A stretch of DNA of 64,000 nt from Longimicrobiales bacterium (GCA_965116905.1 OZ220732.1:1312001-1376000), one strand, 5' to 3'. Shown: positions 2-54,323, counted from the first letter of the stretch. Notes: generated from the sequence alone by a model not told the origin. Numbers and translations are program-made.

Positions 2-538
2 GTGGTGTCCATGCTGGCCGAACTCGAGGTCGGGATGGTCGAAGACGGTACCGCCGTCGGCATGGGACTGGCCACCGCGGTCAAGCGGCTCCAGGCCAGC
101 GAGGCCGCGTCGAAGGTCGTGGTTCTGCTGACCGACGGGCGCAACAACCGGGGCGAGATCGATCCGGTCACGGCGGCGCAGGCAGCCCAGGCGCTGGGTG
201 TGCGCGTCTATACCATAGGGGCGGGCGCTCGGGGGATGGCCCGCGTGCCGGTGCCCGACGGCTTCGGAGGCACGCGTTACGTGACGACCCGGGTCGATGT
301 GGACGAACCGGCCCTGAGAGCGACCGCGGAGACGACCGGGGGGAGGTACTACCGGGCGACCGATCGCGAGAGCCTGGAAGCCATCTACGAGGAGATCGAC
401 CAACTGGAAACGACCGAGATGCTTGTCGAGAACTTCACGAGCTATGGTGAGCGCTTCACGTTCCCGCTGATCCTGGGGCTGATCTTCCTTCTGGCCGAAG
501 TCGTGCTGGGGCGCACCTGGCTGAGGACGCTTCCCTGA
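2..538 (+). CDS. batA: BatA-like VWA domain protein (5' truncated by window edge)
   Basis: DGTAVGMGLATAVKRL, SKVVVLLTDGRNNRGEIDP, RVYTIGAG, C-terminal TM segment; TGATG overlap with next gene. Confidence 0.85.
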   Translation: MVSMLAELEVGMVEDGTAVGMGLATAVKRLQASEAASKVVVLLTDGRNNRGEIDPVTAAQAAQALGVRVYTIGAGARGMARVPVPDGFGGTRYVTTRVDVDEPALRATAETTGGRYYRATDRESLEAIYEEIDQLETTEMLVENFTSYGERFTFPLILGLIFLLAEVVLGRTWLRTLP

Positions 539-1566
539 TGTTCCGCTTCGGTGACGCCGCAGCCCTGTGGGCACTGATCCTGGTCCCCCTCCTCGCCGCG
601 CTGTACTGGTACGCCGGTCGCCGCGGCCGGGTCCTGATGGACCGTTTCGGGGAACACGAGCTTGTGCGGCGCCTGCGGGCCACGGTGAGCGTCACCGCCG
701 CGCGATGGAAGGGCGCGCTCGTGCTGGCGGCGGTCGCGGCCCTCGTACTCGCGGTGGCCCGCCCCCAGTTCGGCACCCGTGTCGAGACACTGCGGCGGCA
801 GGGCCAGGACGTGATGGTGGCCCTCGATGTCTCGCGTTCGATGTACGCCGGCGACGTGGCGCCCAGCCGCCTGGAGCGTGCCAGGATCGAGATCGGAAGG
901 ATCATCCAGCGTCTGGACGGCGACAGGATCGGTCTGGTGGCGTTTGCGGGCGACGCCTTCGTGCAGAGTCCGCTCACGGCCGACTACGGCGCGGCCATGA
1001 TGTTCCTCAGCGCGATGGACCCGGCTTTGATGTCCACGCAGGGAACCGATCTCGCCAGGGCCTTGACGGTGTCCATCGAAGCGCTGGAGGAGACGCCGCC
1101 CGAGAACCGGATCATCGTCGTTGTCACCGACGGGGAGGATCACGAGGGCGGGCTCGCGGAGGCCATTGCGGCGGCGGCCGAGGCCCAGGCCACGGTCCAC
1201 ACCGTGGGGGTGGGGTCGCCGGAGGGCGTGCCGCTGCCCGACGTGGACGGGGTGGAAGCGCGGGGCCGGTTCCGCCGCGATGATCAGGGCAACGTGATCA
1301 CCACGCGCCTGAACGAGACCGCGCTCCAGGACATCGCCCTGCAGACGGGCGGCGAGTACCACCGCGTGGGCGAAGGCGGGGGAGGTCTGGGCCGGCTTCT
1401 GGAAAGGATCGAAGACGGCGGCCGGGAGGTAGAATCCCGTGAGGTCACGCAATTCGAGGAGCAGTTCCAGATCTTTCTCGGGGCGGCGTTGCTTCTGCTC
1501 GTGGTGGAGGTCATCGTGCCGGGAAGGCGAAGGCGTCGGGCCGCAGGACTGGAGGAAGCATCGTGA
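538..1566 (+). CDS. batB: BatB-like VWA domain membrane protein
   Basis: N-terminal BatA-type double TM, ARPQFG, MIDAS DVSRSM, PSRL, DRIGLVAFAG, PLTxDY, TDGEDHEG. Confidence 0.85.
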   Translation: MFRFGDAAALWALILVPLLAALYWYAGRRGRVLMDRFGEHELVRRLRATVSVTAARWKGALVLAAVAALVLAVARPQFGTRVETLRRQGQDVMVALDVSRSMYAGDVAPSRLERARIEIGRIIQRLDGDRIGLVAFAGDAFVQSPLTADYGAAMMFLSAMDPALMSTQGTDLARALTVSIEALEETPPENRIIVVVTDGEDHEGGLAEAIAAAAEAQATVHTVGVGSPEGVPLPDVDGVEARGRFRRDDQGNVITTRLNETALQDIALQTGGEYHRVGEGGGGLGRLLERIEDGGREVESREVTQFEEQFQIFLGAALLLLVVEVIVPGRRRRRAAGLEEAS

Positions 1567-2369
1567 GATTCCGTCGCTCGCATCTCGTCCTGTGGGCGGC
1601 CGCTTTGGTGGCCGCCGCGGTGTCCCTGGGGATTGCGGGCCCCGCGCAGGGCCAGGAGGGCCGCCGGGAAGTCGAGGCCGGAAACCGGCTCTATGAGGAA
1701 GGACGCTTTCAGGAGGCGCACGCCCGCTACCTGGAGGCGCTCGAGCGGGTGCCGGGGCTGCCGGTCGCGCGCTTCAACGAGGGCAGCGCCCTCTACCGGA
1801 GCCAGGAATTCCAGCGGGCGATGGAGGCCTTCCTCGAGGCGGCCGAGGGAGCGGATCCGGAGTGGCAGGCAGACGCGCTGTACAACCTCGGGAACGCGTT
1901 GATCCGGCAGCAGCAGCCCGGACCGGCGGCCGAGGCCTACAAGCAGGCGCTGCGTCTGGATCCCGGCGACCAGGACGCGAAGCACAACCTCGAACTGGCC
2001 CTGCAGCAGCTTGAGCAGCAGGAGCAGCAGCAAGGCGGCGAAGGCCAGGAGGGCGACGACCAGAACCAGGACCCGCAGCAGCAGGGAGAGAGCCAGCCAC
2101 AGCCCCAGGGCAACGAAGAGGGCGAACAGGAGAACAACCCCTCGCAGGGGGAAGACGGGCAGCCGCAGCCCCAGCCCCAGGACGGCTCGCCCGAAGGCGA
2201 ATCGCCGCCCGAAGACCAGCAGGACGGGGAGGGGCAATCGGACATGCCGCCCCCCCAGATGACGCCCGAGCAGGCCGAGCGACTGCTTCAGGCGATCACC
2301 GAGGATCCGGGAGAGGTGAACCGGAAGGCGGCCCAGGCCCGAGGCCGGCGCCCCAGGAGGGACTGGTAG
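1563..2369 (+). CDS. batC: BatC-like TPR protein with Gln/Glu-rich tail
   Basis: Signal peptide, TPR motifs (YNLGNAL, YKQALRLDPGDQDAKHNLELA), Q-rich linker, terminal RDW; position in bat operon. Confidence 0.8.
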   Translation: MRFRRSHLVLWAAALVAAAVSLGIAGPAQGQEGRREVEAGNRLYEEGRFQEAHARYLEALERVPGLPVARFNEGSALYRSQEFQRAMEAFLEAAEGADPEWQADALYNLGNALIRQQQPGPAAEAYKQALRLDPGDQDAKHNLELALQQLEQQEQQQGGEGQEGDDQNQDPQQQGESQPQPQGNEEGEQENNPSQGEDGQPQPQPQDGSPEGESPPEDQQDGEGQSDMPPPQMTPEQAERLLQAITEDPGEVNRKAAQARGRRPRRDW

Positions 2370-2370
2370 G

Positions 2371-2412
2371 CGTGACTGTCGGATCACGAATCGTGACTGT
2401 CGGATCACGAAT
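2371..2412. repeat. Perfect 21-bp tandem duplication (CGTGACTGTCGGATCACGAAT x2)
   Basis: Seen directly at batD start. Confidence 0.9.
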
Positions 2413-4234
2413 CGCGGCGTGCGCGAGGTGGTCGGGCTTGTTCGCCCTCTGGATCGCCGGCCTTGGCTTGCCCGTTGCCGCTGTTGCACAGGACATCGGC
2501 GCGCGGGCCTTCCTCAGCAGCCCGCAGGTGGGCGTGGGGCGCCAGTTCGTGCTGAATGTGGAGGTCTCGGGCACGCAGCAGCTCGACACGGATCCCGTGC
2601 TTCCCGACATGGAGGACTTCGCCAGCTTCCTGAGCGCCGGTACGTCCACGTCGATCCAGATCGTGAACGGCCGCACCAGCATGGCGATCACGTACCAGTA
2701 CCGATTCCAGGCGCTGACCGAGGGGACGTTCGAGATTGCGCCGGTGAGCGTCACGGTCGGTGACGAGGTGGTGCAGACCGAGCCCGTCACCCTGGTGGTG
2801 TCGGACGCCCCGCCGCCGCCCGATGCCGGCGCCGATCCGGCGGATCCCGGTGCGGCCATCGGACCCGACGATCTTTTCATCGAGACCCGGGTTTCCAGCG
2901 AGCGCGCCTTCGAGAACGAACCCGTCATCGTCGAATACCGGATCTTCACACGGGTTCCGGTGCAGTCGTATGCGATCACGACCCTCCCCCAGGCGACGGG
3001 CTTCTGGACGGAGGAACTGGAACAGCCCGCCTCGCCGCAAGCGGAACGCGTCGTTCGAAACGGCAGCGAATACCTCACGGCAACCGTGCGGCGGGTGGTC
3101 CTCTTCCCCACGGGACCCGGCTCGAAGACGCTGGACCCGTTGAGTGTCGAGGCGCAGGTGCGGGTGCGTGAACGAAGCGTCTTCGATCCCTTCAGCGACA
3201 TCTTCGGACGATCGAGTCTCTTCGACCAGCGGGTGCCGGTGGTGGTGGCGTCGAGGCCGGTTGCCATCGAGGTGCTTCCGCTTCCGCAGGCGGACCGGCC
3301 GGGGTCGTTCGCCGGGCACGTGGGCACACTCGGCGTATCGGCTTCGGTGGACCGCGCCGCCGTCGAGGCCAACGAGGCGGTGACTCTGACGGTGGAATAC
3401 GCCGGCACCGGCAACCTGCGGACTCTTGCGCCGCCCGACATCGTTTTTCCGGTCGAGTTCGAGACGTTTCCGCCCGAGACCAGCGAGCGCATTGCCGAGG
3501 GCGGAGGAAGCCTGCAGGGGAGCCGCAGCTTCGCATACGTGCTGATCCCGCGGGTGCCCGGCGAGTTGACCATCCCGGAGGTCGAGGTCGCGTACTTCGA
3601 TCCCGCTTCGGGGCAGTACGGCAGCGCGCGGTCCCAGCCCCTGGAGATCAACGTCACGGGTGATGCGGCGGAGGGGGAAGGTGCGGGCGCCGTCCCCACG
3701 GCCGTGGAGACCATCCGCGACGAGATCCGCTTCATCCACGTCGGCACCCCGCGCTTCCGAAGGGTGGGCCTGCCCGTGTACACGACCGGCGCATTCTGGC
3801 TGGTCCTGCTGTTGCCGCTGGCCGCGGTGGGTGGAGCCATGGTCTTCCGCCGTCACCGGGATCGGCTCGAGGGGGATGTGGCCTACGCCAGGGTGAGGAG
3901 GGCGGACCGAATGGCGCGGAAGCGGCTGGCGCGCGCACGGAGTCTGGCGGGCGGCGACCCGCGGGAGTTCTACGCGGAGGTGGCCGGGGCACTCCAGGGT
4001 TTGCTGGCGGACAAGCTCAACCTCGCCGAGGCGGGGATGGTCAGGGAGGACGCGGGACGGGTTGCGGCGCGGCGCGGTGCGTCGGCGGAAACACTGGAGC
4101 GCCTCTTCGCGTGTCTCGACGACTGCGACCGGCAGCGCTTCTCGCCGGCCGGCGCCGAAAGGGAACCGCCGGAGCGCGTCCTGGAGCGCGCGGCGGCGAT
4201 CATGGGCGACCTCGCGCGGGAGTTGTCCCGATGA
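2372..4234 (+). CDS. batD: BatD family protein (start uncertain)
   Basis: Repeated Ig-like BatD segments (TSTSIQIVNG, FWTEEL, GTGNL, YFDP), TM near C-terminus; operon context. Confidence 0.8.
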   Translation: MTVGSRIVTVGSRIAACARWSGLFALWIAGLGLPVAAVAQDIGARAFLSSPQVGVGRQFVLNVEVSGTQQLDTDPVLPDMEDFASFLSAGTSTSIQIVNGRTSMAITYQYRFQALTEGTFEIAPVSVTVGDEVVQTEPVTLVVSDAPPPPDAGADPADPGAAIGPDDLFIETRVSSERAFENEPVIVEYRIFTRVPVQSYAITTLPQATGFWTEELEQPASPQAERVVRNGSEYLTATVRRVVLFPTGPGSKTLDPLSVEAQVRVRERSVFDPFSDIFGRSSLFDQRVPVVVASRPVAIEVLPLPQADRPGSFAGHVGTLGVSASVDRAAVEANEAVTLTVEYAGTGNLRTLAPPDIVFPVEFETFPPETSERIAEGGGSLQGSRSFAYVLIPRVPGELTIPEVEVAYFDPASGQYGSARSQPLEINVTGDAAEGEGAGAVPTAVETIRDEIRFIHVGTPRFRRVGLPVYTTGAFWLVLLLPLAAVGGAMVFRRHRDRLEGDVAYARVRRADRMARKRLARARSLAGGDPREFYAEVAGALQGLLADKLNLAEAGMVREDAGRVAARRGASAETLERLFACLDDCDRQRFSPAGAEREPPERVLERAAAIMGDLARELSR

Positions 4235-4995
4235 AGCGCGCGCTGCTGGCCGCCGCTGTGCTGTGCCTGTCCGCCTTGCCGTCGGCCGTCGGTGCCCAGC
4301 AGGCGCTCTTCGACGAGGGCAACCGCCTGTACCAGGAGGGCGACTTCAGCGCGGCCGCGGCCAGCTATGGCGCCGTTCTCGAGGGCGGATTCGAGTCGGC
4401 AGAGGTGTACTACAACCTTGCCAACGCGCACTTCCGTCTGGGCGATGTCGCGCACGCGGTGCTCAACTACGAGCGGGCGGCCCGGCTGGATCCCGCCAAC
4501 GAGGATATCCGGGCCAACCTGGCGCTCGTCACCCGGATGCTTCAGGACCGGATCGAGCCCCTGCCCCGATTCTGGGTGCTCTCGGCGTTCGAGTGGTGGA
4601 TGACGCTCGTACCGCGTGGATGGCTGGAAGCGGTGGCCGCGGTCTGCTACGTCCTGCTCGGCTCGGCCACGGTGTTGCTGGTGCTGGGCCGCTTCGGCGG
4701 GCGGCGCGCCGTGGCGCTGCGCAGGATCGCGTACGTGGGCGCGGTGGGCACCGTGATCCTTGGGGGGACGCTGCTCGTCCGCGAGGCCGGGTGGGCGACT
4801 CCGGAGCAGGCGGTGGTCATGGCGGCGGAAGCCCGCGTGCTCAGCGCTCCATCGGAAGACGGCGGACTGACGGTCTTCACGCTGCACGAGGGCACGACCG
4901 TAAGAATTGATCGGCGGACCGAAGAATGGGCCGAGATCGTGCTGGCGGACGGCAAGGTCGGCTGGCTGCCGCTGGACGTGCTGGAGGGTGTCTGA
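4231..4995 (+). CDS. batE: BatE-like TPR + SH3 protein
   Basis: ATGA overlap with batD; YYNLANA, LNYERAARLDP, C-terminal LHEGT...WAEIVLADGKVGWLP SH3b-like domain. Confidence 0.85.
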   Translation: MKRALLAAAVLCLSALPSAVGAQQALFDEGNRLYQEGDFSAAAASYGAVLEGGFESAEVYYNLANAHFRLGDVAHAVLNYERAARLDPANEDIRANLALVTRMLQDRIEPLPRFWVLSAFEWWMTLVPRGWLEAVAAVCYVLLGSATVLLVLGRFGGRRAVALRRIAYVGAVGTVILGGTLLVREAGWATPEQAVVMAAEARVLSAPSEDGGLTVFTLHEGTTVRIDRRTEEWAEIVLADGKVGWLPLDVLEGV

Positions 4996-7536
4996 CTATG
5001 CCCTCATTCTGCTCCCGGACGGGTCGGACAGTCCCGTGCCGACCGCGGCCACCGTGACCGGGTAACACTCGTTCATGTACATCATCTGCAGCCGCTCGCC
5101 GACCCGGGCGCGCTCGGCCGGCAGCCAGGCCATCAGCAGGTATTTCCCGACGGATGGGCCCATCCCGGCGGAGGTCACTCGGGACTCCCTGCCCAGGGCG
5201 TCGACGATGCGGTTGCCTCCGGGCGTGAGGATCGGCTCGTTTCCGCCCGTCGGGAAGCGCAGGGTGCCGGACGCGCCGGCATGATCGTCCATGGTGAGCG
5301 TGCACAGGCGCGCGGCCGGCTCCACCTCGCGGGCCTTCAGGTACGCGGCCTTGCCGATGAAGTCCGCCCGCTTCACATGGCGCCGCGCCAGGCCGGCCTC
5401 GACCGGTGAGTACTCGGAGGTGAGTTCGGCGCCCATGAGCAGGTAGCCCTTCTCCAAGCGCGCGGTGGTGCCGTAGACACCGATCCCGACCGGCCGCGCG
5501 TCGAACTCCCGGCCGGCACGCCGGATCGCGTCCCAGAGCGCGAGGCCGTGCTCTGTGCGCGTGTAGATCTCCCAGCCGCTCTCTCCCACGTACGAGATGC
5601 GCAGCAGGGTGGCGGGAATCCCGCCGATGAGCGCCTCTCGCACCGTGCCGTACGGGAACTCGCCCTGGCTCAGGCCGCAGTCCGCGACGCTCGAGACCAG
5701 GGCCCCCGCGTCCGGCCCCCATACCCCGAGCGTGGTCATCGCCGACGACCGGTCCTCGAAGTGCACCGAGCCGTCTTGCGGGAGATGTTTGCGGAACCAG
5801 AAGGCGTCGCGGGCGCCATCGAAGACGCCGGTGACGATGCGAAACCGGTCGTGGGCGAGCCTCTGGATGGTCAGATCGGCACGGAAGCCGCCGTCCGGCG
5901 TCAGGAGCGGCGTGTAGATGGCGCTTCCGGCCGGCCGGTCGCACGGGTTGACCGTCATGCGCTCCAGGTACGGGAGCGCGCCGGGCCCCGAGACGTCGAA
6001 GATCTGGAACGCGCCCAGGTCGACCACGCCGACCCTCTCGCGCAGGTGCAGATGTTCCGCGTTAATGATCGGCGACCACCAGCGCCGGTCCCACTCGTGC
6101 GGGCGGTCCGGGACGTTGTAGCGCTCGACCAGGTCCTGGTTGGAGGCGTACCACTGCGGGCGCTCCCATCCCCGCGCTTCGTAGTATTCGGCTCCAAGCG
6201 CCTCGGTCCGGGGGTGGAACGGCGACCGGTTGATCCCGCGCGCGGACTCCCACTGCTCGCGCGGATGCACGATCCCGTATGTCTTGGGGAAGTGCTCGCG
6301 GCAGCGCGTGCGGACGTGGCGGCCGGTGCGCTCATGGGGCTGGAAGCGGGTGACATCCGACTCGTGCGGATCCAGGAGGCGCGGGTACCCGTGGGTCATC
6401 CACTCGGCGATCAGGCGCGCCGAGCCGGGGCCCTCGCGCACCCACACGGCGGCTGCCGACCAGAGGTTCGCCACCTCGGTCGTCTCGCCCAGCAACTGCT
6501 GGGTGTCGGGCGTGAGCGAGAGCAGGCCGTTGATCGCGTACTGCATCTTGGTGCCGGCCAGGAGTTCGCCCATGATCTCGCGCGCGTGTTCGAGCTGCGG
6601 CGCGAAGTCGAGAGGCGTAAAGGGCAGCTCGGTGGGAGAGCGCTCCGCCTCCGAGACAGAGGGAATCTCTTCGGGCCGGATCAGGATGGGGCGATGCGCG
6701 TATGACCCCACCTCCATGGCTCCGTCGCTCTGCCTTTCATACATGAACGAATCCATGTCGCGCACGATCGGGTAGCCGATCTCGTTGCCCGTTTCCAGCA
6801 GCAGTTCGACCGGACCGAAGTCGGCCATCTGGTGCACCGCCGGGGTGAGCGGGATCGTGGCGCCGGCCATCGCGGCGATGCGCGGACTCCAGACTCCGCA
6901 GGCAATGGCCACATGGTCCACCTCGATGGTGCCGCGGGTCGTGGCGACTGCCCGGATACGGGGGCGGCCGAAGGGAACGGGGTCGACTTCGAGGCCGGTG
7001 ACCTCGGTGTTGTCCAGCACGGTGAGCACGCCCCTGGCCAGCGCCCGCTCGCGCATGATCGTGCCCGCCTTCACCGAGTCGACGACCGACACGCTCGGGG
7101 TATGGAAGCCGCCGAGGATCACGTCCGGGTTGACGAAGGGGACCTTTGCGACGACTTGCCGAGGCGTCAGCAGCTCGCTCTCGATGCCCCATACGCGCGC
7201 CGAGGTCATGCGCCGGCGAAGCTCTTCCATGCGCTCTTCGGTGCGCGCGACCTCGATGCCGCCGCAGGTCGTGTTGACGCCGAGCGCTTCGTACTGGCGC
7301 TGGCTCTCGAGGGTGATCAGCGCGATCTCGCGGCCGTGATCGACGGGGAAGATGAAGTTGGACGCGTGGCCGGTCGATCCGCCGGGGTCGGGGAGCGGGC
7401 CCTTGTCGATGAGTACGAGGTCGTCCCAGCCGAGGCGCGCCAGGTGCTCGACCAGGCAGTTGCCGACGATGCCGGCGCCGATGACGGCGACCCTGGCGGT
7501 CCTTGCGCTGGACGGCAGCGTGGGTCGTTCACTCAT
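4996..7536 (-). CDS. FAD-dependent oxidoreductase with GcvT domain (dimethylglycine/sarcosine oxidase-dehydrogenase family)
   Basis: VIGAGIVG FAD motif, GGSTGHAS, GWERPQWY, LRISYVGESGWEIY, RLEKGY; start at MSERP overlapping the upstream gene stop. Confidence 0.85.
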   Translation of the reverse strand: MSERPTLPSSARTARVAVIGAGIVGNCLVEHLARLGWDDLVLIDKGPLPDPGGSTGHASNFIFPVDHGREIALITLESQRQYEALGVNTTCGGIEVARTEERMEELRRRMTSARVWGIESELLTPRQVVAKVPFVNPDVILGGFHTPSVSVVDSVKAGTIMRERALARGVLTVLDNTEVTGLEVDPVPFGRPRIRAVATTRGTIEVDHVAIACGVWSPRIAAMAGATIPLTPAVHQMADFGPVELLLETGNEIGYPIVRDMDSFMYERQSDGAMEVGSYAHRPILIRPEEIPSVSEAERSPTELPFTPLDFAPQLEHAREIMGELLAGTKMQYAINGLLSLTPDTQQLLGETTEVANLWSAAAVWVREGPGSARLIAEWMTHGYPRLLDPHESDVTRFQPHERTGRHVRTRCREHFPKTYGIVHPREQWESARGINRSPFHPRTEALGAEYYEARGWERPQWYASNQDLVERYNVPDRPHEWDRRWWSPIINAEHLHLRERVGVVDLGAFQIFDVSGPGALPYLERMTVNPCDRPAGSAIYTPLLTPDGGFRADLTIQRLAHDRFRIVTGVFDGARDAFWFRKHLPQDGSVHFEDRSSAMTTLGVWGPDAGALVSSVADCGLSQGEFPYGTVREALIGGIPATLLRISYVGESGWEIYTRTEHGLALWDAIRRAGREFDARPVGIGVYGTTARLEKGYLLMGAELTSEYSPVEAGLARRHVKRADFIGKAAYLKAREVEPAARLCTLTMDDHAGASGTLRFPTGGNEPILTPGGNRIVDALGRESRVTSAGMGPSVGKYLLMAWLPAERARVGERLQMMYMNECYPVTVAAVGTGLSDPSGSRMRA

Positions 7537-8128
7537 GCGCGAATGGTTCGCGCGCGAAGATCCGGCGCACCATGGGCTCGAAGAACTCCAGCGGCAGCGT
7601 GTCGTAGTCCGGATCGAACGAGCACTGGTCCCAGCGGTGACAGAAGTCCACGGCGTCCTGGTACCAGGGGTGGTCGCGGTACTTGTCGCGCGCGTTACGG
7701 TCGCCGCCCACGTGGTGGCCGTAGTAGAAATACTGGAACAGGCCGTGGTGGCGGACGATCCACCAGGTTCGCTCGCTGACATAGGGGCGCAGCAGCAGCG
7801 CGGCCAGCTCTCCGTGGCTGTGCGGGGCCAGGAGATCGTCGATGTCGTGGAGGAGCGCGGCCACCACCATCTCCTCGTCCGCGCCGTCGCGATAGGCGCG
7901 GGTGGCCGACTGCAGCGAGTGCTCCAGCCGGTCTACCTGGTAGCCACCCACCGAACCGGACAGTTCGCGGAGGTGAGCGAGCACCCGGTCGGCGGTGCCG
8001 GCGGCGAACTCGTCCTCGAGGCGCGCGAGCAACTGGTAGTCCTCGCGGGTGCCGTCCGCCATGTGAATGAAGCTCACCACTGGGCCGTTCGGCTGATTCA
8101 TGTCGTCCATGCGATTCATGTCGTCCAT
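7529..8128 (-). CDS. HD-domain metalloprotein (PhnZ-like ligand set, uncharacterised clade)
   Basis: LEHSLQSATRA...AALLHDI...PHSH...RHHG...RWDQ; ~199 aa; start ambiguous owing to an 18-bp duplication (MDDMNR MDDMNQ). Confidence 0.8.
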   Translation of the reverse strand: MDDMNRMDDMNQPNGPVVSFIHMADGTREDYQLLARLEDEFAAGTADRVLAHLRELSGSVGGYQVDRLEHSLQSATRAYRDGADEEMVVAALLHDIDDLLAPHSHGELAALLLRPYVSERTWWIVRHHGLFQYFYYGHHVGGDRNARDKYRDHPWYQDAVDFCHRWDQCSFDPDYDTLPLEFFEPMVRRIFAREPFAHE

Positions 8129-8186
8129 GGGTGGCAACTCGTGCGATGAGGGACTTCGCTGGGAGCGTGGGCGCAGGCGTAAGGCG

Positions 8187-8213
8187 GTGTCAAGGGAGGG
8201 GGGCGCTTGACAC
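8187..8213. promoter_or_regulatory. Inverted repeat GTGTCAAG-N11-CTTGACAC (back-to-back TTGACA boxes) in divergent intergenic region
   Basis: Perfect 8-bp inverted repeat between divergent HD and dioxygenase genes. Confidence 0.5.
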
Positions 8214-8286
8214 GCGCCGGAAGCGCGTGCTCTGATACCGGCAACGCTCGCGTTCGCGCGCTTCAGGCTCACGCACCACGACGACC

Positions 8287-9402
8287 ATGCGTCACTCCAT
8301 CAGCGGCCTCACTCGAAACGCCGATACCCTGACGGCAGTCTGGGGCAGCGGCGAGCAGACCGATCTTCCCTACCTCTGGCTGCGCGACAACTGCGGATGC
8401 AGCGAGTGCCGCGTCGTGCAGACTTCCGAGAAGCGGTTTCACCTCTTCCGGGTGCCTGCCGACCTGACGCCGGCGGAGGTCGGAATCGAGGGCGCCGGAT
8501 CCGCGGACGAAGCCGTCTCGATCGCATGGCCGGACGGACACCGCACCCGCTTTCGGTCGAACGAGATCCATGGTCTGCTGATCCTGCCCCGGTTCGAACT
8601 GCAGTACTGGGCCGGCGGGTTTCAGCCGAGGCGGTTCGACTACCGGCGGTTCCTGGAGAGCGACCAGGCAGCGGCGGAGCTGATCGAGGAGTTTCTGCGG
8701 ACGGGCGTTTGCGTGCTCGTCGACGCGCCGACCGAGCCGGATTCATCCGAACAGCTCGCGACCCGTCTGGGGCCGATTCGCGAGGTGCTGTTCGAGCGCA
8801 TCCACAACGTCAAGCTCGATCCGAAGGGGTACAACATCGCGCACACGGGTCTGGCGGTCGCGCCGCACAACGACTTCACCAGCTACAGCTGGCCCCCCAA
8901 CGTGCAGGCGCTGCACATGCTGGTGAACGAGTGCGAGGGCGGCGAGTCCGTTGTCGTGGACGGCTTCGGCCTGCTCGACGAACTCCGGGACGAGCACCCC
9001 GACAAGTTCGACGCGCTGTGCAGGGTGCCGGTGCCGTTTCGCATCTTCAGCGCGGAGCACGAATGCTATTCGGTCAACCCGATGATCGAGCTGGACGGCG
9101 ACGGCGAGATCACGATGGTGCGCTTCAACACGGCGCAGATGCAGGCCCTTCCCCTCTCGGAACCGCGGCTCGCCGAGTTCTACGCCGGCTACCACGAGCT
9201 GTCCAGGCGCGTCAATGCGCCCCGTGCCCAGGTCACCTTCCGGCTGGAGGGCGGGCAGGTTCTGCTATGCGCCGGACACCGGGTGCTGCACGGCCGCACG
9301 GCTTTGCGCTCAAAGGGGCGGCGCCACCTGCAGGACGCCTACTTCGAGCACGACAACGTGCGCAACCACCTCAGGTGGCTGCGACTCGGCGGGCGGATCT
9401 GA
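8287..9402 (+). CDS. Fe(II)/2-oxoglutarate dioxygenase, gamma-butyrobetaine hydroxylase/TauD family
   Basis: N-terminal WLRDNCGCSEC and WPDGH; HxD (PHNDF); GGESVVVDGF; HRVLHGR distal His. Confidence 0.85.
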   Translation: MRHSISGLTRNADTLTAVWGSGEQTDLPYLWLRDNCGCSECRVVQTSEKRFHLFRVPADLTPAEVGIEGAGSADEAVSIAWPDGHRTRFRSNEIHGLLILPRFELQYWAGGFQPRRFDYRRFLESDQAAAELIEEFLRTGVCVLVDAPTEPDSSEQLATRLGPIREVLFERIHNVKLDPKGYNIAHTGLAVAPHNDFTSYSWPPNVQALHMLVNECEGGESVVVDGFGLLDELRDEHPDKFDALCRVPVPFRIFSAEHECYSVNPMIELDGDGEITMVRFNTAQMQALPLSEPRLAEFYAGYHELSRRVNAPRAQVTFRLEGGQVLLCAGHRVLHGRTALRSKGRRHLQDAYFEHDNVRNHLRWLRLGGRI

Positions 9403-9456
9403 GGCTACTCTGAAGCTTACTCTGAAGCTACTCGGAGGTTACTCGGAAGCTGCACG
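9401..9456. repeat. About 5 degenerate 11-12 bp tandem units (GAAGCTACTCT-like)
   Basis: Seen directly between convergent genes. Confidence 0.75.
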
Positions 9457-9482
9457 GTCGGCTGCGGCGATCCTCCTCCCCC

Positions 9483-10787
9483 TCAGACCGTCGCGTCGAG
9501 GCCCCGGGCTGCCGCCACCTCGCGGGCGCTGGGGTTCACGGAGGGTCGGAAGGGCACGTCGCACACGCGCGCGGGGTCCGGCCGCCCCGGCTCGCTGGCG
9601 TACTCGTCGGGCAGCCACACCGTAAGTTCCGTGCCGACGGCCGACCTGCCCACGGGGACCCAGCCGAGCGCGATGTTGCAGCCCAGTTCCGGGGCGTACC
9701 ACGGCGAGGTGAGGTAGCCGATGGGGTCGCCGCCGTCCGCGTCCGACACGAGCCAGAAATCCGGGGCGTAGTCGTCAATGGGCTTTCCGCCCAGGGTCAT
9801 CCCGGCCATGACCATCGCGAAGGGGCAGCGCCCGGCATCGAGTTCGGCTCGCTGGCGCTCCAACGCGGCCCGCCCGATGTAGTCCCCCATCTTCTCGCGC
9901 GGCACCTGGTAGGCCAGGTTGCACTGGAACGGACTCGTCTCGTGGTCGATGTCCTGGCCCCAGGAGAGGATTCCCGCCTGGATCCGGCGCTGGTGGCCCG
10001 GCGCGATGACCATCAACCGGTGCGCCTCCCCGGCTGCGAGCACGGCGCGCCACAGCTTCTCGGCGTGCAGGGTGGCGTCCCGCAGGTAGATCTCGTACCC
10101 CTTCTCGCCCGAAAAACCGGACTGGGAAATCACCACGGAAGTGCCCGCGATCTCCGCCTGCATGAGGCCGTAGTAGGGGATGTCCCGGACGCCGTCACCC
10201 ACCAGGTCGGCCATGAGAGCGAGCGACTTCGGCCCCTGGATCTGCAGCGGACAGACATCGATTTCGTCGATCTCCACGTCCATGCGGAGCCCCGCGTTCA
10301 CGCCCTGCAGCCAGAACAGAAGGTCGGAGTCGGCCAGCGAGAACCAGAACTCGTCCCCGGAAAGGCGCAGCAGCACCGGGTCGTTGAGAATGCCGCCCCT
10401 CTCGTTGCAGACGATGACGTATTTTGCGTGCATTGGCTCGATTCGGGTCGCATCGCGCGTGATCACGTAGTCGGTGAATCGCTCCGCGTCCGGTCCCCTG
10501 ACCCGGATCTGGCGCTCCACCGCGACATTCCACACCGTGACGTGCCGCGTCAGCGCCTCGTGCTCCGCCGCCGCGCCGCCGTCCTCGGGCCGAACGTAGC
10601 CGCGGGGGTGGTAGATGCGGTTGTACACGGTGGCCCGCCAGCAGCCCGCTTCATGCGACAGATGCCAGTAGGGGGACTTCCGGACCCGGGTTGAGATGAG
10701 CATCTCGACCGGTGTGCGGCCGCTCTGGCGCAGGTTGATCGGGACGACCCTGTCGGACTGGTCCACGCTGGTCGGTTGATGGATCAT
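9483..10787 (-). CDS. GcvT/DmdA-like folate-dependent aminomethyltransferase or demethylase
   Basis: RVRKSPY, VWNVAVERQI, GGILNDPVLLRL, LQIQGPKS, SQSGFSGEKGYEIY, RRIQAGILSWGQD; GGAG RBS before MIHQ. Confidence 0.85.
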   Translation of the reverse strand: MIHQPTSVDQSDRVVPINLRQSGRTPVEMLISTRVRKSPYWHLSHEAGCWRATVYNRIYHPRGYVRPEDGGAAAEHEALTRHVTVWNVAVERQIRVRGPDAERFTDYVITRDATRIEPMHAKYVIVCNERGGILNDPVLLRLSGDEFWFSLADSDLLFWLQGVNAGLRMDVEIDEIDVCPLQIQGPKSLALMADLVGDGVRDIPYYGLMQAEIAGTSVVISQSGFSGEKGYEIYLRDATLHAEKLWRAVLAAGEAHRLMVIAPGHQRRIQAGILSWGQDIDHETSPFQCNLAYQVPREKMGDYIGRAALERQRAELDAGRCPFAMVMAGMTLGGKPIDDYAPDFWLVSDADGGDPIGYLTSPWYAPELGCNIALGWVPVGRSAVGTELTVWLPDEYASEPGRPDPARVCDVPFRPSVNPSAREVAAARGLDATV

Positions 10788-11001
10788 CGCCGGGGCTTTC
10801 TCCGGTTGCATGGTTGGGAGTGAGGGGGTCGCCAGCACGACCCCCCGGGGCCGGTTCAGCATGTCGGCTGAAACGCCCTGTAGCAAGGCGACCCGAGGCG
10901 AGCCCTTTGGGTTCGCGGATACTCGGCAGCGGGACTATCGTAGGTCTACGAACACGCGCCCCGGGATGGAATCCGACAGCCCCCAAGGGAGGATGGCCGC
11001 G

Positions 11002-12594
11002 ATGAAAGCCGGGCGACACCGACGCACCACGGCGGATTCCGGGCTGTGGAAGGGGCTGAATCCCGCGATGGCGCTGGCCGCCAAGGGCGTCGTCCTGGCG
11101 TTCGTCGTGGCCACGGTCTGGGACGTGGAGGCGGCGGGCGCCGTCTTCGGCCGCATCCGCGCCTGGATCGAGGGGACGCTCGACTGGTTCTACATCCTGA
11201 CCGTCGCGGCAGCCGTGCTCACCTGCCTGTTTCTGGTATTCAGCCGGTTCGGCCGGATCCGGCTCGGCGACGACGCTTCGCCGCCCGAGTTCAAGACGTC
11301 GTCCTGGATCGCCATGCTGTTTTCGGCCGGCATCGGAATCGGACTGCTGTTCTTCTCCATCGCCGAACCCCTGTTCTACTTCGACAACAGCCAGACCGCG
11401 GGCTACCCCAACAACCCGAGCGCCGACCTCGCGGGCGCCGTGTTGCTCGACGAGCAGCGTGCGGTGCATGCCATGCGGGTCACCTACTTCCATTGGGGCA
11501 TTCACGGTTGGTCCGTGTACGTTCTGGTCGGGCTCTGTCTGGCGTACTTCGGGTTTCGCAAGAAGCTGCCGCTGACGCTGCGCTCGGCCCTGTACCCTCT
11601 CATCGGCGAGCGCATCTACGGCCCGGTCGGCGACCTCGTGGACCTGTTGGCCGTCTTCGGCGGTGTCTTCGGGATCGCGACCTCGCTGGGCCTCGGGGCA
11701 AGCCAGATGGCCACCGGACTCGACGTGCTCTTCGGCGTTGCGCCGGGTGTGGTCACCCAGATCGCCCTCATCGCCGCCATTTCGCTGGCGGCCACCCTGT
11801 CGGCAGTGTCCGGCGTGCGCCGCGGCATCCGCGTCCTGTCCGAATGGAACATCCGCCTGAGCCTTGTCCTGCTGGGATGCTTCCTGCTTCTGGGCCCATT
11901 CGGCTGGCTCGCGGGCTTCGTCGCGTCGTCGCTCGGCGAATACCTGTGGCACCTGGTGCCCATGTCATTCTGGATCGCCGATGACCCGGGGGAAGCCGCC
12001 TGGCAGAACGGCTGGACGATCTTCTACTGGGGGTGGTGGATCTCCTGGGCCCCCTTCGTCGGCACGTTCATCGCGCGCATTTCCCGTGGGCGCACCCTGC
12101 GCGAGTTCATCGTGGGCGTGATGTTCGTCCCGACCGCCCTGGTGCTGCTCTGGTTCGGGATCTTCGGCGGCAACGCCATCCATCTGGAACTCACTGCCGC
12201 GGGCGGCGTCGGAACCGCCGGGGTCATGGAGCTTGTGCGGGCGGCGAACTACGAAGCCGCGCTCTTCGCGACGTTCGACCGGATGAGCGACATCGGCTGG
12301 CTCACCTGGGCCATGTCCGCCATGGCCACCCTCCTGTTGGCGACGTGGTTCGTCACGTCGTCGGACTCCGGCACCCTTGTCATCACCACCTTTCTGAGCA
12401 TGGGCGACGCTCATCCCCCACGGCGGTTCCGCATCGTCTGGGGGCTCGGGGTGGGTGTCGTGGCTGCCGTGCTCCTGCTGGCCGACGGTCTCCAGGCGCT
12501 GCAGACCGCCGCGATCGCCGCCGCCCTGCCCGTGAGCCTCGTGCTGCTGTTCATGATCGCCGGTCTGCTCAAGTCCCTGGCGCGCGAGCGGTGA
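11002..12594 (+). CDS. BCCT family (betaine/carnitine/choline) transporter
   Basis: SWIAMLFSAGIGIGLLF, FHWGIHGWSVY, WTIFYWGWWISWAPFVGTFIARISRGRT; GGGAGG RBS. Confidence 0.95.
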   Translation: MKAGRHRRTTADSGLWKGLNPAMALAAKGVVLAFVVATVWDVEAAGAVFGRIRAWIEGTLDWFYILTVAAAVLTCLFLVFSRFGRIRLGDDASPPEFKTSSWIAMLFSAGIGIGLLFFSIAEPLFYFDNSQTAGYPNNPSADLAGAVLLDEQRAVHAMRVTYFHWGIHGWSVYVLVGLCLAYFGFRKKLPLTLRSALYPLIGERIYGPVGDLVDLLAVFGGVFGIATSLGLGASQMATGLDVLFGVAPGVVTQIALIAAISLAATLSAVSGVRRGIRVLSEWNIRLSLVLLGCFLLLGPFGWLAGFVASSLGEYLWHLVPMSFWIADDPGEAAWQNGWTIFYWGWWISWAPFVGTFIARISRGRTLREFIVGVMFVPTALVLLWFGIFGGNAIHLELTAAGGVGTAGVMELVRAANYEAALFATFDRMSDIGWLTWAMSAMATLLLATWFVTSSDSGTLVITTFLSMGDAHPPRRFRIVWGLGVGVVAAVLLLADGLQALQTAAIAAALPVSLVLLFMIAGLLKSLARER

Positions 12595-49756: not shown

Positions 49757-50329
49757 TCAGCCTTCCTCCGAGTCCATCGCGGCCCCGATCGCGCGGGCAT
49801 ACCAGTCGAGTGTCTCGATGAAGCCGGCAAAGGACTTTTCGTAGTGCGGCGCCGCGGGTTCGCCGTCTTCGCCGAAGCTGCCCGACACCCTGGAGACGTG
49901 CATTCCGGCCACCGGCAGGGCCTTGAGGCGGAGGAACAGGAGCTGCAGGTGGTTGTGCACCTGGACACCGCCAAAACCCCCCGCGGACACGGTCACGATT
50001 CCGACCGGCTTGCGGAACCACTCGCCGTAGATGTAGTCGAGCGCGTTCTTGAGAACGCCCGGGATGGAGCCGTTGTATTCGGGACTGACGACCACGACGG
50101 CGTCGGCGGCCCTCACCGCCTCCGAGAAGCGGACCAGCCCCGGCGGCGGGTCGTCCCGCATGTGCAGGCGCTCCTCCATGATCGGCAGGTCCAGGCTGCG
50201 AAGGTCCAGCAGCGGCGCGTCGGCCCCCGCCTGTCCGAGCCGGTCGCCGGCGAAGCGTGCCACCCTGATGGACTGGCGGCCGCGGCGTACCGAGCCCACG
50301 AGAACCGGGATGCGCAGCGGACGGTTCAC
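49757..50329 (-). CDS. NADPH-dependent FMN reductase
   Basis: GSVRRGRQS, SPEYNGSIPGVLKNALD, KPVGIV; GTGA overlap with ligase. Confidence 0.9.
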   Translation of the reverse strand: MNRPLRIPVLVGSVRRGRQSIRVARFAGDRLGQAGADAPLLDLRSLDLPIMEERLHMRDDPPPGLVRFSEAVRAADAVVVVSPEYNGSIPGVLKNALDYIYGEWFRKPVGIVTVSAGGFGGVQVHNHLQLLFLRLKALPVAGMHVSRVSGSFGEDGEPAAPHYEKSFAGFIETLDWYARAIGAAMDSEEG

Positions 50330-51918
50330 CGGGGACGGCCGGACGCGCCGGTCGTGGTCGGAGCACCCGAATCCCGGCCGGATGCGCGCACCTCCCGTTT
50401 CAGCGCTCCGCGGTCCACCTTGCCCAGGTGCGTGCGCGGCAGGTCGGCCAGGATATGGATCGCGCGCGGGTGCTTGTAGGACTCCAGCCGGGCGGCGACG
50501 TGGGCGCGGAGGCCGGCGACGTTTCCGCGGGGGTCGTCCTCGCGGGGCACAAGCACCACGAACGCCTCCGGAACCGTCAGTCCGTCTTCGGTCTCGATCC
50601 CCACCACCGCCGCCTCCTTTACACGCGGGTGTTGCAGCAGGCACTCCTCGGCCTCCCCGGGCGAAAACCACTTCCCCGAGACCTTGAGCAGGTCGTCGGC
50701 GCGTCCCTGGTAGCTGAAGCACCCGTCCTGGTCGCGCGTCATCATGTCGCCCGAAATGTACCACTCCCCGGCGAACGCGTGGCGCGTCGCTTCCGGGTGC
50801 TGCCAGTAGCCGTGCGCGAGGGACCCGCCCCGCACCCGCATCCGGCCGACTTCGCCGGTCTCCACCTCGTTGCCGTCGTCGTCGCAGAGCAGGACCTCGA
50901 ATCCGGGAACCGCGCGGCCGAGCGTCCCGGGCCGCACCTCGCCGGGCCGATTCGAGATGAAGACGTGCCACATCTCGGCCGTGCCGAGCCCATCGAGGAG
51001 TTCGACGCCGAAGGTGTCGTCCCAGCGGTGGTGCAGGGTGGGCGGCAGGGGTTCGCCGGCCGAGGTGGACAGCCGCAGACAGCTCAGGTCCCGGGCGTGC
51101 GCGTCCGGGTGGGCGACCATGTGATTCACCATGGTAGGGACGTTGACCAGGATCGTGGGGCGGTGGCGGGCGATCTGCGTGAACAGCTCGTCGGCGGTGC
51201 AGCGCTCCGGAAAGAGCACGGCCGAGGCGCCTGCGGCGAGGGGAAAAAAGAGGTTGGAGCCGGTGGCGTACCCGAAGTAGAGCTTGGGCACCGAGAGGGT
51301 GATGTCCTCGGGCGCGTAGCGGAGAACGCCCTTCGCGTAGCATTCGGTGGTGTTGGCAAACGACGCGTGGCTCTGGATCACGCCCTTGGGGCGACCGGTC
51401 GTGCCGCCCGAGAACAGCCAGATCGCGGGGTCGTCGAAATGTGAAGTAAAGTTGACATAATGTAAACTGGAGTTGTCAACAAGAGCATCGTCGTCGGGGG
51501 TGCCGAGGACGAGCAGACGGGGTGGATTGGGCGCGCCGCGCGCCGCCTCCAGGAAGGTCGCCGCGTGGTCCGAGTGGATTACGGCGGCTGTCGCGCGCGT
51601 GTAGTCGTACATGTCGCGGACTCGCGACGCGCCCAGGTAGCAGTTCACCATCACGCCGACCGCGCCCATCTTGAGCGCACCGAAGAGCGCGGCGGGGAAG
51701 TCCGGAACGTCGGGGAGACCCACGAGCACGCGGTCTCCGGGACGAACGCCGGCCGCTTCCAGGGCGTTGGCAAACTGGTTGGCGCGGGCCTGCAGCGCCG
51801 CGTAGCTGACGGTGCCGTCGCGTGTCCGCAGGGCGATCCGCTCACCGAGCCCCTCCCGGATCCGGTCGTCCAGGAAGTAGTCGGCGATGTTGAAGGGGTC
51901 GGGAGGGTCGAAGCGCAT
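50326..51918 (-). CDS. Benzoate/2-aminobenzoate-CoA ligase
   Basis: WLFSGGTTGRPKG, KLYFGYATG, SAGEPLP, DGLGTAE, SGD, GRADDLLKV, GKVDR; adjacent to abm-like operon. Confidence 0.85.
   Translation of the reverse strand: MRFDPPDPFNIADYFLDDRIREGLGERIALRTRDGTVSYAALQARANQFANALEAAGVRPGDRVLVGLPDVPDFPAALFGALKMGAVGVMVNCYLGASRVRDMYDYTRATAAVIHSDHAATFLEAARGAPNPPRLLVLGTPDDDALVDNSSLHYVNFTSHFDDPAIWLFSGGTTGRPKGVIQSHASFANTTECYAKGVLRYAPEDITLSVPKLYFGYATGSNLFFPLAAGASAVLFPERCTADELFTQIARHRPTILVNVPTMVNHMVAHPDAHARDLSCLRLSTSAGEPLPPTLHHRWDDTFGVELLDGLGTAEMWHVFISNRPGEVRPGTLGRAVPGFEVLLCDDDGNEVETGEVGRMRVRGGSLAHGYWQHPEATRHAFAGEWYISGDMMTRDQDGCFSYQGRADDLLKVSGKWFSPGEAEECLLQHPRVKEAAVVGIETEDGLTVPEAFVVLVPREDDPRGNVAGLRAHVAARLESYKHPRAIHILADLPRTHLGKVDRGALKREVRASGRDSGAPTTTGASGRPR
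51450..51480. other. AT-rich palindromic, dif-like element inside the CoA-ligase CDS
   Basis: AGTTGACATAATGTAAACTGGAGTTGTCAAC; minus strand reads ...TTTACA-TTATGTCAACT. Confidence 0.4.
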
Positions 51919-51979
51919 CGGTCAGACGGTTTGGGCGGTTGGGTGGCGATTATGTTTAGAGACGAAGGAGGGATCGTCA

Positions 51980-52966
51980 ATGGAGAACCACCTCTGGGGC
52001 CAGGCGACGTGGACGGAGCTGGCGCGTCTCGGTCTTGCCGTCCGTGAACGAGGCGGCCCGGACACCGAGAGCGGCGGCGCGGACGGGAGTGCCCACGCCC
52101 CACCCGGCTCCCGCGTCGTCGCGTTGCTCCCGACCGGCGCGGTCGAGGCCCACGGCCCCCATCTCCCGCTCACCACCGACGTCACGATCGCGAACGCCGC
52201 CGCGCAGGCCGCGCTGCCCGGTCTCCGGCGCCTGGGCCTCCATCCGGTCATTCTGCCCCCCCTGCCGTACACGGCCGCCCCTTTCGCGGCGGGCTTCCCG
52301 GGCACGATCTCGGTGCGTCCCGCGACCGTCACCGCGCTGCTGGCCGACGTGGCGGCCTCGCTGGAACGACAGGGTGCGGCCGCGCTCGTCGTCGTCAACG
52401 CGCACCTCGACCCGGCCCACCTGGACGCGATCCGGAAGGTGGTGCGCGGCGGGAACGCTGCGGGCGCGGCGGTGCCCTCGCGGCACCCGGGTGAGGCCCC
52501 CGCTCGGGACGCGGCTCCGGCTCGCGACGAGGCCCCCACGCGCGACGGGGCCCCCGCTCGCCACGAGGCCCCCACGCGCGACGAAGCCACCGCTCGCGAC
52601 CAGGGCTGGCCCATGCCCGTCATCCACCCCGACCTCACCGAGCGGCGCTGGGCCTCGCGCCTGACCGCGGAATTCAGGAGCGGGGCGTGTCATGCCGGGT
52701 CCTACGAGACCTCGGTGGTGATGGTCGCGGCCCCGGAGCTGGTTCGCGAGGACGAGCGGCGTGGATTGGCCAAAAACCCGGCCTCGCTGTCGGTCGCGAT
52801 CCGTGAGGGCGCGGCCACCTTCGAGGAGGCCGGGGTCACGGCGGCCTACTGCGGCGATCCCGCCGCGGCGACCCGGGAAGAGGGGGAGGAGACCCTGGAG
52901 GTGCTGGCGCGGATCGTGGTCGAAGCGGTGGAAGAGCGGCTGGGGCGAGAGACGAGGCCGGCATGA
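51980..52966 (+). CDS. Creatininase-family amidohydrolase
   Basis: AAGGAGG RBS; LLPTGAVEAHGPHLPLTTD, FPGTIS, VNAH, HAGSYETS. Confidence 0.9.
   Translation: MENHLWGQATWTELARLGLAVRERGGPDTESGGADGSAHAPPGSRVVALLPTGAVEAHGPHLPLTTDVTIANAAAQAALPGLRRLGLHPVILPPLPYTAAPFAAGFPGTISVRPATVTALLADVAASLERQGAAALVVVNAHLDPAHLDAIRKVVRGGNAAGAAVPSRHPGEAPARDAAPARDEAPTRDGAPARHEAPTRDEATARDQGWPMPVIHPDLTERRWASRLTAEFRSGACHAGSYETSVVMVAAPELVREDERRGLAKNPASLSVAIREGAATFEEAGVTAAYCGDPAAATREEGEETLEVLARIVVEAVEERLGRETRPA
52493..52600 (+). repeat. Six 18-bp in-frame tandem units encoding EAP(A/T)RD-like hexapeptides
   Basis: Seen directly inside the creatininase-family gene. Confidence 0.9.
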
Positions 52967-53799: not shown

Positions 53800-54323
53800 C
53801 CTTCGAGATCGTGAACCCGGCGGCGCTTGGCTCTCCGCGTGGCTGGAACAACGGGATGCTCGCGCCGGAGGGCGGCAGGGTGCTCTTCGTCGCCGGACAG
53901 ATCGGGGTGGCGGGCGAAGGGGAGAGACGCGATCCGGAGGGAGGCGGTCGCGACGGGGCCGGTCGGGAGGGGGCCGAATCGCGGGATCGAGAGGCCGGCG
54001 GCAGCCCGCTGGTGCGGCAGTTCGGCGCGGCGCTGGCCAACGTCCGGCGTGTGGTCGAGGCGACCGGGGGAGGGGTTGCCGACGTCGGGCGGCTCACCAT
54101 CTACGTGACCGACATGGATGCCTATCGCGGGTCTCTGCCCGAAATCGGGGCCGCGTACAGGGCGGTGTTCGGGAAGCACTTCCCGGCCATGGCGCTGGTG
54201 GCGGTCACCGAGCTGGTGGATCCGCGTGCGGTGGTGGAGGTCGAGGCCACGGCGGTAATCCCGCAGGCGCAATTGGGTGGGCACGCCGCCACCCGACCGC
54301 CCACCGTGAAGGAGAAGCCATGA
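53796..54323 (+). CDS. RidA/YjgF family enamine-imine deaminase
   Basis: PRGWNNG, LFVAGQIG, FGKHFPAMALVAV, VEVEATA. Confidence 0.88.
   Translation: MTFEIVNPAALGSPRGWNNGMLAPEGGRVLFVAGQIGVAGEGERRDPEGGGRDGAGREGAESRDREAGGSPLVRQFGAALANVRRVVEATGGGVADVGRLTIYVTDMDAYRGSLPEIGAAYRAVFGKHFPAMALVAVTELVDPRAVVEVEATAVIPQAQLGGHAATRPPTVKEKP

Follow-up and report, generated by a model that had tools for sequence, protein, structure and literature searches.

The 64,000-nucleotide stretch of Longimicrobiales bacterium DNA analysed here (GCA_965116905.1 OZ220732.1:1312001-1376000; hereafter the window) carries, at positions 4996-12594, five intact open reading frames that encode a transporter, two oxygenase-type proteins and two demethylase-type proteins. 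At the center of this island is an HD-domain protein, a predicted di-iron oxygenase that falls outside the PhnZ and TmpB families and is tied to an Fe(II)/2-oxoglutarate (2OG) dioxygenase by adjacency, co-occurrence and gene fusion. The best reading of the island, to which we give a probability of about 0.45, is that this pair would hydroxylate a trimethylammonium carboxylate and then cleave a C-C bond with O2, yielding glycine betaine, which would in turn be demethylated.

Few HD-domain oxygenases have been characterised: the accessible part of PMC12186529 names MIOX, PhnZ, TmpB and SmaX. In the full-text literature, which leaves out most subscription papers, we found no experimental study of this HD family, of the dioxygenase clade described below, or of bacterial oxygenation of β-alanine betaine. 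If the substrate were identified, marine carbon, nitrogen and possibly sulfur cycling would gain a further route of osmolyte turnover. It would also become clear whether the weak PhnZ-like matches of ocean surveys represent phosphonate enzymes in the first place; the window HD gene itself matches TIGR03276 weakly. With the putative importer, both oxygenases and both demethylases within 7.6 kb, the window is well suited to such a test.

An earlier note, made from the sequence alone, had described five genes in two divergent pairs, and this layout was borne out: the HD and dioxygenase genes diverge from a 158-bp gap, the GcvT-like and BCCT genes from a 214-bp gap. The HD gene is followed by that of a dimethylglycine oxidase (DMGO)-like flavoprotein; an overlap of 8 nt between the HD stop and the start of the flavoprotein gene hints at coupled translation. 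The features are:

4996-7536, minus strand: DMGO-like flavoprotein with a folate-binding domain (846 aa; Pfam DAO, FAO_M, GCV_T)
7529-8128, minus strand: HD protein of a large family, predicted di-iron oxygenase (190-199 aa; Pfam HD)
8129-8286, no strand: intergenic region between, and common to, the divergent HD and dioxygenase genes (158 bp)
8287-9402, plus strand: BBOX/TmpA-like Fe(II)/2OG dioxygenase (371 aa; Pfam TauD and GBBH-like_N; H194-N-D196...H335)
9483-10787, minus strand: DmdA-like GcvT-fold protein, candidate folate-dependent methyltransferase (434 aa; Pfam GCV_T)
11002-12594, plus strand: BCCT-family betaine/carnitine/choline transporter (about 530 aa; Pfam BCCT)

Fold and iron ligands of the HD protein

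Is the HD protein one more PhnZ or TmpB? Its scores lie far below the family cut-offs: 41.5 bits against 214.6 for TIGR03276 (PhnZ), 34.3 against 300 for NF049941 (TmpB) and 24.7 against 300 for NF052439 (PhnZ1). The control was L248, the TmpB-like protein of a genuine tmpAB-type pair, which reaches 216.3 bits on TIGR03276 (cut-off 214.6) and whose TmpA-type partner scores 408.7 against 400 on NF049936. Whereas L248 contains the HDIGH, KRYL and S-x-x-L-G-V-Q-G-G segments, the window protein has none of them, just as the earlier note had said (giving the last as SLxxQGG); aligned against the same control, the window protein showed no YxxE loop of PhnZ (Y24/E27, described in the available portion of PMC8177086). 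Sequence alignment to solved PhnZ and TmpB extends over no more than the initial 38-49 residues of the HD core. At the positions of K108, R158 and H62, which we take to be the phosphonate-binding residues of PhnZ, the protein carries Q123, H/E155 and D89, a correspondence drawn from sequence and profile alignments, not from superposed coordinates. On these comparisons the HD protein is not a member of the PhnZ/TmpB families; its own family is large, with 484 representatives at E ≤1e-30 among 50% clusters.

The closest folds are still HD oxygenases. An AlphaFold2 model (mean predicted local distance difference test score, pLDDT, 94.5) matches PhnZ with Z 17.8 (template modelling score, TM, 0.67), TmpB with 16.8 and MIOX with 11.6; other folds reach at most 8.3, and a Foldseek ranking concurs. 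MIOX, third in rank, is likewise an HD-fold, di-iron, C-C-cleaving oxygenase, but shares only 13% identity in structure alignment, and the window shows no inositol context. As modelled, then, the overall fold is nearer to the oxygenases PhnZ, TmpB and MIOX than to HD hydrolases. The six iron ligands, H61, H85, D86, H96, H119 and D158 (numbered from the ATG at 8101), do not vary in any of the 62 family rows and line up with those of L248. The di-iron ligand set that the earlier note had picked out (EH, HD, H, HH, WD) therefore stands for these six, but not for the whole HH pair, in which the second His is conserved and the first is found in only 76 of 147 representatives. Together with the modelled fold, the ligands make the protein a predicted di-iron oxygenase, which would share the mixed-valent Fe(II)/Fe(III) cofactor and the O2-dependent four-electron cleavage of PhnZ, TmpB and MIOX.

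HD proteins may also be phosphohydrolases, and this one could act as such (on phosphocholine, for example), with the dioxygenase working separately on an ester such as choline sulfate or phosphocholine and freeing betaine aldehyde; we regard this as highly improbable. An Arg three residues ahead of the first His, a typical HD phosphohydrolase trait according to the available portion of PMC8177086, is present in all 62 close rows; of 134 wider representatives, however, only 79 have it, and the protist fusions carry other residues there. Likewise, betA and aldehyde dehydrogenase genes adjoin some relatives, but a close betA was not found in this genome; hydrolase folds rank far below oxygenases in structure scores, and the repeated fusions of the HD domain, with three clades of hydroxylases and with a fatty-acid hydroxylase, are in keeping with a second oxidative step.

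Two identifications of HD genes were rejected. SAR11_1174 was dropped as a candidate for the HD gene, since it is grouped under phosphate regulation (PMC2217521). Another conserved HD-like protein with weak similarity to that of the window is encoded at 4.19 Mb (G000:C1:4194614-4195117) and in many genomes of the genus; considered as a second family copy, it proved to belong to a different family and to have no phosphonate context. At the 5' end of the window gene itself, an internal duplication (8099-8128) creates several in-frame ATGs, so that translation would start at 8128, 8110 or 8101; a start at the second ATG (8101) gives 190 aa.

Coupling to the dioxygenase

All 20 genus loci and 75 of 80 loci from GTDB genomes keep the HD and dioxygenase genes together; in 70 of the 74 loci that hold both at ≥60% identity, the two are divergent and adjacent. 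This co-location is far beyond chance. Neither outcome that would have refuted the earlier note came about for the pair: it stands together in other genomes and, with HD scores below the TmpB cut-offs, apart from TmpB. The GTDB loci include Spirochaetia and Acidobacteriota at 65-85% identity, which points to transfer of the gene pair among sponge symbionts. When 36 genus genomes were searched with both genes, 23 had both, 12 had neither and one had a split HD gene alone. Split HD genes, broken into two frames, occur at G031:C4:1712184-1712695 and G025:C56:4159-4730; G031 also has no dioxygenase and has fragmented demethylase genes, which suggests decay or assembly errors.

Fusions tell the same story. 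Of 22 long proteins picked from the best 150 HD-family representatives, 15 join a TauD/BBOX dioxygenase to the HD domain, one a fatty-acid hydroxylase and one an aldolase II. P0228 is a bacterial-type fusion of exactly the two families of the window (dioxygenase part, 49% identity), and P0324 also contains a window-type dioxygenase (43%); altogether, the dioxygenases fused to HD domains belong to three clades, that of the window among them. Fusion or family members with a named source are from Dracoamoeba, Mucochytrium, Saprolegnia and Mantoniella; some of the protist fusions have a BBOX-type partner that shows the Asn pattern of carboxylate binding. Several BBOX-HD fusions (P0262, P0263, P0328, P0355, P0362 and P0371; three with a named protist source) begin with peptides that, by eye, resemble mitochondrial targeting sequences. 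Conserved adjacency and fusion argue that the HD protein and the dioxygenase act as one unit; because the HD domain is repeatedly joined to different hydroxylases, it would, most simply, perform the step after hydroxylation.

Known pairs provide both precedents and contrasts. TmpA/TmpB of Leisingera caerulea (PDB 6npb, 6npa), which convert trimethylammonio-ethylphosphonate (TMAEP) to glycine betaine and phosphate, similarly combine a BBOX-like hydroxylase with a six-ligand HD protein, and glycine betaine is the likely product here too. However, the window proteins are far below both family cut-offs, structure alignments of the HD protein to TmpB show 21-23% identity, the YxxE loop, the phosphonate residues and the dioxygenase Arg288 are missing, and the genes are divergent; by analogy, the window pair resembles TmpA/TmpB in its layout and in the probable class of its chemistry, yet neither protein belongs to those families. 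PhnY*/PhnZ and the fungal PhoF fusion follow the same logic of a hydroxylase and an HD oxygenase, and fusions occur in both families; in the family of the window, however, the partner is BBOX-like and the fusions are in protists. SmaO/SmaX, an Fe/2OG and HD pair that cleaves the C-C bond of an α-hydroxy acid, turning Asp into aminomalonate in a peptide that is made on the ribosome and modified after translation (RiPP; PMC12186529, in its accessible part), exemplifies the chemistry proposed for the window pair, hydroxylation followed by HD-dependent C-C cleavage (a likeness of chemistry). SmaX is reported there as mono-iron and acts on a peptide, whereas the window HD protein has the full di-iron ligand set and a small-molecule catabolic context.

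The dioxygenase is likewise below all cut-offs: 232.6 against 400 bits for TmpA (NF049936), 231.2 against 414.75 for BBOX (TIGR02409) and 162.9 against 268.3 for TMLD. Its best PDB sequence match is BBOX (E 3e-41), with which it shares the Zn-binding Cys motif and the H-x-D...H triad; the iron ligands H194, D196 and H335 and the 2OG arginines R337 and R346 are invariant, and the GBBH-like N-terminal domain is present. In a quick IQ-TREE analysis of 34 rows, with Shimodaira-Hasegawa-like approximate likelihood ratio test (SH-aLRT) support only, and with stand-ins scored by family models in place of characterised enzymes, the window dioxygenase belongs to a clade of its own (100% SH-aLRT) on a long branch, apart from TmpA-like proteins and from carnitine-linked bacterial BBOX. 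One spirochaete genome has window-type and carnitine-linked BBOX-type dioxygenases at separate loci. Across the 120 homologues that best match a free-living member, with Luminiphilus, Cellvibrionales and Woeseiaceae among the named organisms, E166, F169, R171, H173, H186 and the H-N-D-F motif are near-invariant. An aromatic cage has been described for trimethylammonium binding (PMC4736438). At the positions that we presume to form the cage of human BBOX, F169, F197 and Y352 are kept, and His residues (H173 and H186) replace two aromatics.

The likeness of fold to PhnZ and TmpB raises the possibility that the pair is a second, independently evolved system for C-P bond cleavage, which would convert TMAEP or another N-methylated aminoethylphosphonate into glycine betaine (or a relative) and phosphate. 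PhnZ and TmpB are the closest folds of the HD protein, and the HD family has conserved arginines of its own (R39, R58 and R138, in the 62 close rows); a sister dioxygenase clade, also paired with the HD family, groups with TmpA, at 329-369 bits against the cut-off of 400, and a PhoX gene lies near one of its loci (L145). Furthermore, canonical PhnZ/TmpB was not found in this genome. Still, the pocket argues otherwise: of the TmpA phosphonate contacts N187, N287 and R288 (named in the accessible part of PMC9296572), the window dioxygenase retains the first (N183) but has T282 and A283 for the others, its whole clade having Gln or Ala in this region, and the HD family is without the PhnZ phosphonate residues. 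Phosphonate transporter and C-P lyase genes were not seen among the recurring neighbours in the 80 GTDB loci, and among the protist fusions are those with the BBOX-type partner and its Asn pattern for carboxylate binding. We consider a C-P cleavage system unlikely.

A proposed route to glycine betaine and its alternatives

How would the five proteins work together? From the genes, folds, ligands, oxygenase coupling and nested distribution we infer the substrate and every reaction of the following route. The BCCT transporter would import a trimethylammonium carboxylate and the Fe/2OG dioxygenase would hydroxylate it. TmpA and BBOX place the hydroxyl group on the carbon that is two bonds away from the quaternary nitrogen (PMC4736438, PMC10574752); in β-alanine betaine this carbon is C2, and the product would therefore be an α-hydroxy acid. 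The HD enzyme would then cut the neighbouring C-C bond with O2, giving glycine betaine (and, from β-alanine betaine, CO2 in an oxidative decarboxylation); the DmdA-like protein would move one methyl group of glycine betaine to tetrahydrofolate (THF), leaving dimethylglycine; and the DMGO-like flavoprotein would oxidise dimethylglycine to sarcosine. The earlier note had proposed import, hydroxylation, oxidative cleavage and stepwise demethylation of an onium compound: the tie between the HD protein and a hydroxylase stood firm, while the substrate class, an onium compound ending in glycine betaine, comes from context only. β-alanine betaine, by analogy the carboxylate twin of the TmpA substrate and a measured marine metabolite (PMC9321204, in the part available), is our first candidate, albeit a rather unlikely one when taken singly. 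γ-Butyrobetaine, degraded by way of carnitine and kept in view by carnitine-operon contexts and BBOX-type fusions, would be a somewhat longer shot, and another onium carboxylate a longer one again. The portions of the sponge metabolome literature available to us name betaines and carnitines in general terms only.

Both demethylases have recognisable relatives. The DMGO-like protein matches Arthrobacter N,N-dimethylglycine oxidase (1pj5, E 2e-137) over its full length, yet with only moderate similarity; the flavinylated His and the His/Tyr positions that we take to be catalytic in 1pj5 align. For the DmdA-like protein, the best NCBIfam match is DmdA (NF009133; 266.8 against 410 bits, below the cut-off) and the best PDB match is DmdA as well (3tfh, E 2e-46), which makes DmdA the nearest GcvT-fold enzyme; as a candidate methyltransferase, the protein may pass methyl groups to tetrahydrofolate without redox chemistry. 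Of the 80 GTDB loci, 31 hold a MetF-like gene (a weak match to Pfam MTHFR), which lies beside the DmdA-like gene in relatives and accompanies the pair in 15 loci even where no DmdA-like gene is adjacent; such neighbours fit the formation of methyl-THF. SAR11_1265, a metF-adjacent aminomethyltransferase of unknown substrate in SAR11 (per the accessible part of PMC3160333), resembles this arrangement by description. In the window, the gap between the dioxygenase and DmdA-like genes (9403-9482) corresponds to the site of a MetF-like gene of about 300 aa in many relatives, and holds short imperfect tandem repeats that may be its deletion scar. The transporter matches PF02028 (E 5e-170) and exceeds the TIGR00842 cut-off (459.6 against 407.55) but not that of the glycine-betaine equivalog NF047988 (509 against 650); a close ortholog is present in 28 of the 34 genomes that have the dioxygenase. 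The BCCT literature consulted offered no specificity residues that could be applied to it.

DmdA being the nearest characterised relative of the methyltransferase, could the substrate be a sulfonium compound? Dimethylsulfoniopropionate (DMSP) would then be hydroxylated at C2, shortened to dimethylsulfonioacetate and demethylated by the DmdA-like protein, and lone HD proteins might decarboxylate 4-dimethylsulfonio-2-hydroxybutyrate (DMSHB) to DMSP. The smaller aromatic cage could suit a dimethylsulfonium group; the HD family is marine-rich and found in algae and other protists; and, according to the available part of PMC11306096, most DMSHB decarboxylases are unidentified and they occur in Rhizobium, whose replicons carry the HD gene; Ruegeria pomeroyi lacks this decarboxylase activity. 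Nevertheless, a DMGO-like amine oxidase, here apparently coupled to the HD gene in translation, would have no role in an all-sulfur route, the methyltransferase is under the DmdA cut-off, and the BHMT, carnitine and choline contexts described below indicate nitrogen compounds. We rate a sulfonium substrate as less probable than C-P cleavage.

The distribution of the five genes is nested: across 53 genomes of the genus, the 34 with the dioxygenase fall within the 38 with the DmdA-like gene, and these within the 41 with the DMGO-like gene, a pattern that a linear pathway predicts. The pair may, however, act on a non-betaine compound and merely have been gathered, in some lineages, beside an independent module for glycine betaine demethylation and a transporter. 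In most GTDB loci the pair indeed occurs without the other three genes (DmdA-like in 33, DMGO in 17 and BCCT in 15 of 80), the DmdA-like and DMGO-like genes form an adjacent module of their own in other relatives, in many of which it is separate from the HD and dioxygenase genes, and the invariant pocket residues E166, R171, H173 and H186 are unusual. But both demethylases are present in 34 of 34 genomes with the dioxygenase, Spirochaetia gather the same four enzymes in a different gene order, and MetF-like genes travel with the pair. Such a mosaic seems to us about as improbable as C-P cleavage.

Distant relatives of the HD protein were followed in 14 proteobacterial plasmid records and 80 metagenome loci; the metagenome scan was seeded with the HD protein of a choline-gene plasmid locus, so it may favour choline contexts, and many of its contigs are short. 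Of these 80 loci, 17 hold a BBOX-like gene, and six (L168, L180, L182, L192, L206 and L208), all SAR11-like contigs with the HD gene after purF, have a BHMT-like neighbour. In two loci (L209:334-963 and L221:10001-10630), the HD gene lies between genes for BKACE and carnitine dehydrogenase, which marks the setting as a butyrobetaine/carnitine operon. A Pseudomonas plasmid has the order dioxygenase-HD-choX-betA-aldehyde dehydrogenase, and a Rhizobium replicon combines the HD gene with amidohydrolase-like, reductase, betA-, choX- and aldehyde-dehydrogenase-like genes. As far as gene content can tell, the common thread of the informative contexts is glycine betaine. Near choX-like genes of Rhizobium and Pseudomonas (L137:8367-12630 and L241:1-4601) there are also genes for a reductase, LysR and an amidohydrolase-like protein, joined in L241 by a Rieske gene, possibly a further oxygenase module for a choline-like compound.

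Several observations weigh against the route to glycine betaine. All five genes are together in just 5 of the 80 GTDB loci and the four enzymes in 17, so that the island which the earlier note described is not constant in its make-up; the genomes behind the nesting counts are kin and hence not independent. The adjacent MetF-like gene is lost from the window and no close copy was found elsewhere in the genome, and the routes given in the accessible part of PMC12478193 include none that passes a methyl group directly from glycine betaine to folate. The change of the cage to H173 and H186 makes trimethylammonium binding uncertain and a non-betaine substrate possible; the other dioxygenase clade that is paired with the HD family keeps the TmpA motif H-T-D-N-P-Y-R and the Arg288 position, which would suit a phosphonate substrate. 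Finally, 32 low-GC SAR11-like contigs have the HD gene after purF, mostly with no adjoining hydroxylase, and elsewhere the HD gene is found near genes for aromatic catabolism, other hydroxylases or aldolases, or with unrelated neighbours or none; the HD family may thus act on several substrates.

A wider and only tentative extension of the glycine betaine route is that a widespread branch of HD di-iron oxygenases shortens hydroxylated onium carboxylates by C-C cleavage, an "α-oxidation" of osmolytes, which would here feed a cobalamin-free, folate-dependent glycine betaine demethylase. If so, SAR11-like bacteria, roseobacters, rhizobia, sponge symbionts and protists would use this branch to turn β-alanine betaine, carnitine-like or DMSP-series solutes into glycine betaine or the corresponding sulfur compound, and the DMSHB decarboxylase still missing from DMSP synthesis may be one of its members.

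Host and neighbouring genes

The nearest named relatives of the host are Gemmatimonadota bins and Ca. Palauibacter, and a sequencing run that contains the stretch is labelled sponge metagenome; the host is a sponge-symbiotic, Ca. Palauibacter-like bacterium. The GC content of the island, overall and at third codon positions (GC3), agrees with host values, and each of the five genes is single-copy in the genome. A sponge run labelled as RNA was rejected as evidence of expression: its contigs are even over the whole 20 kb, intergenic regions included, as DNA would be.

Elsewhere, the genome contains sarcosine-oxidase-like genes and a separate BKACE/carnitine-dehydrogenase-like pair. A second cluster (G000:C1:1088909-1094793) comprises a DmdA-like gene, two genes for phytoene-desaturase-like flavoproteins and another GcvT-like gene. 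Loci L200 and L201 have a comparable set next to dioxygenase-HD and polyamine transporter genes, and L165 has part of it; the set possibly serves the demethylation of an N-methylated amine. In 14 of the 80 related GTDB loci, a TonB receptor gene lies between the DmdA-like gene and BCCT; here, a TonB-dependent receptor with 81% identity to that receptor is encoded far from the island (G000:C1:2546655-2549165).

The island itself is flanked by a batE-like gene on one side and a TonB-receptor gene on the other. Upstream, the window holds a batABCDE-like operon (2-4995) and, further down, an aromatic/tryptophan catabolic cluster (50326-61960), both made up of ordinary host genes.

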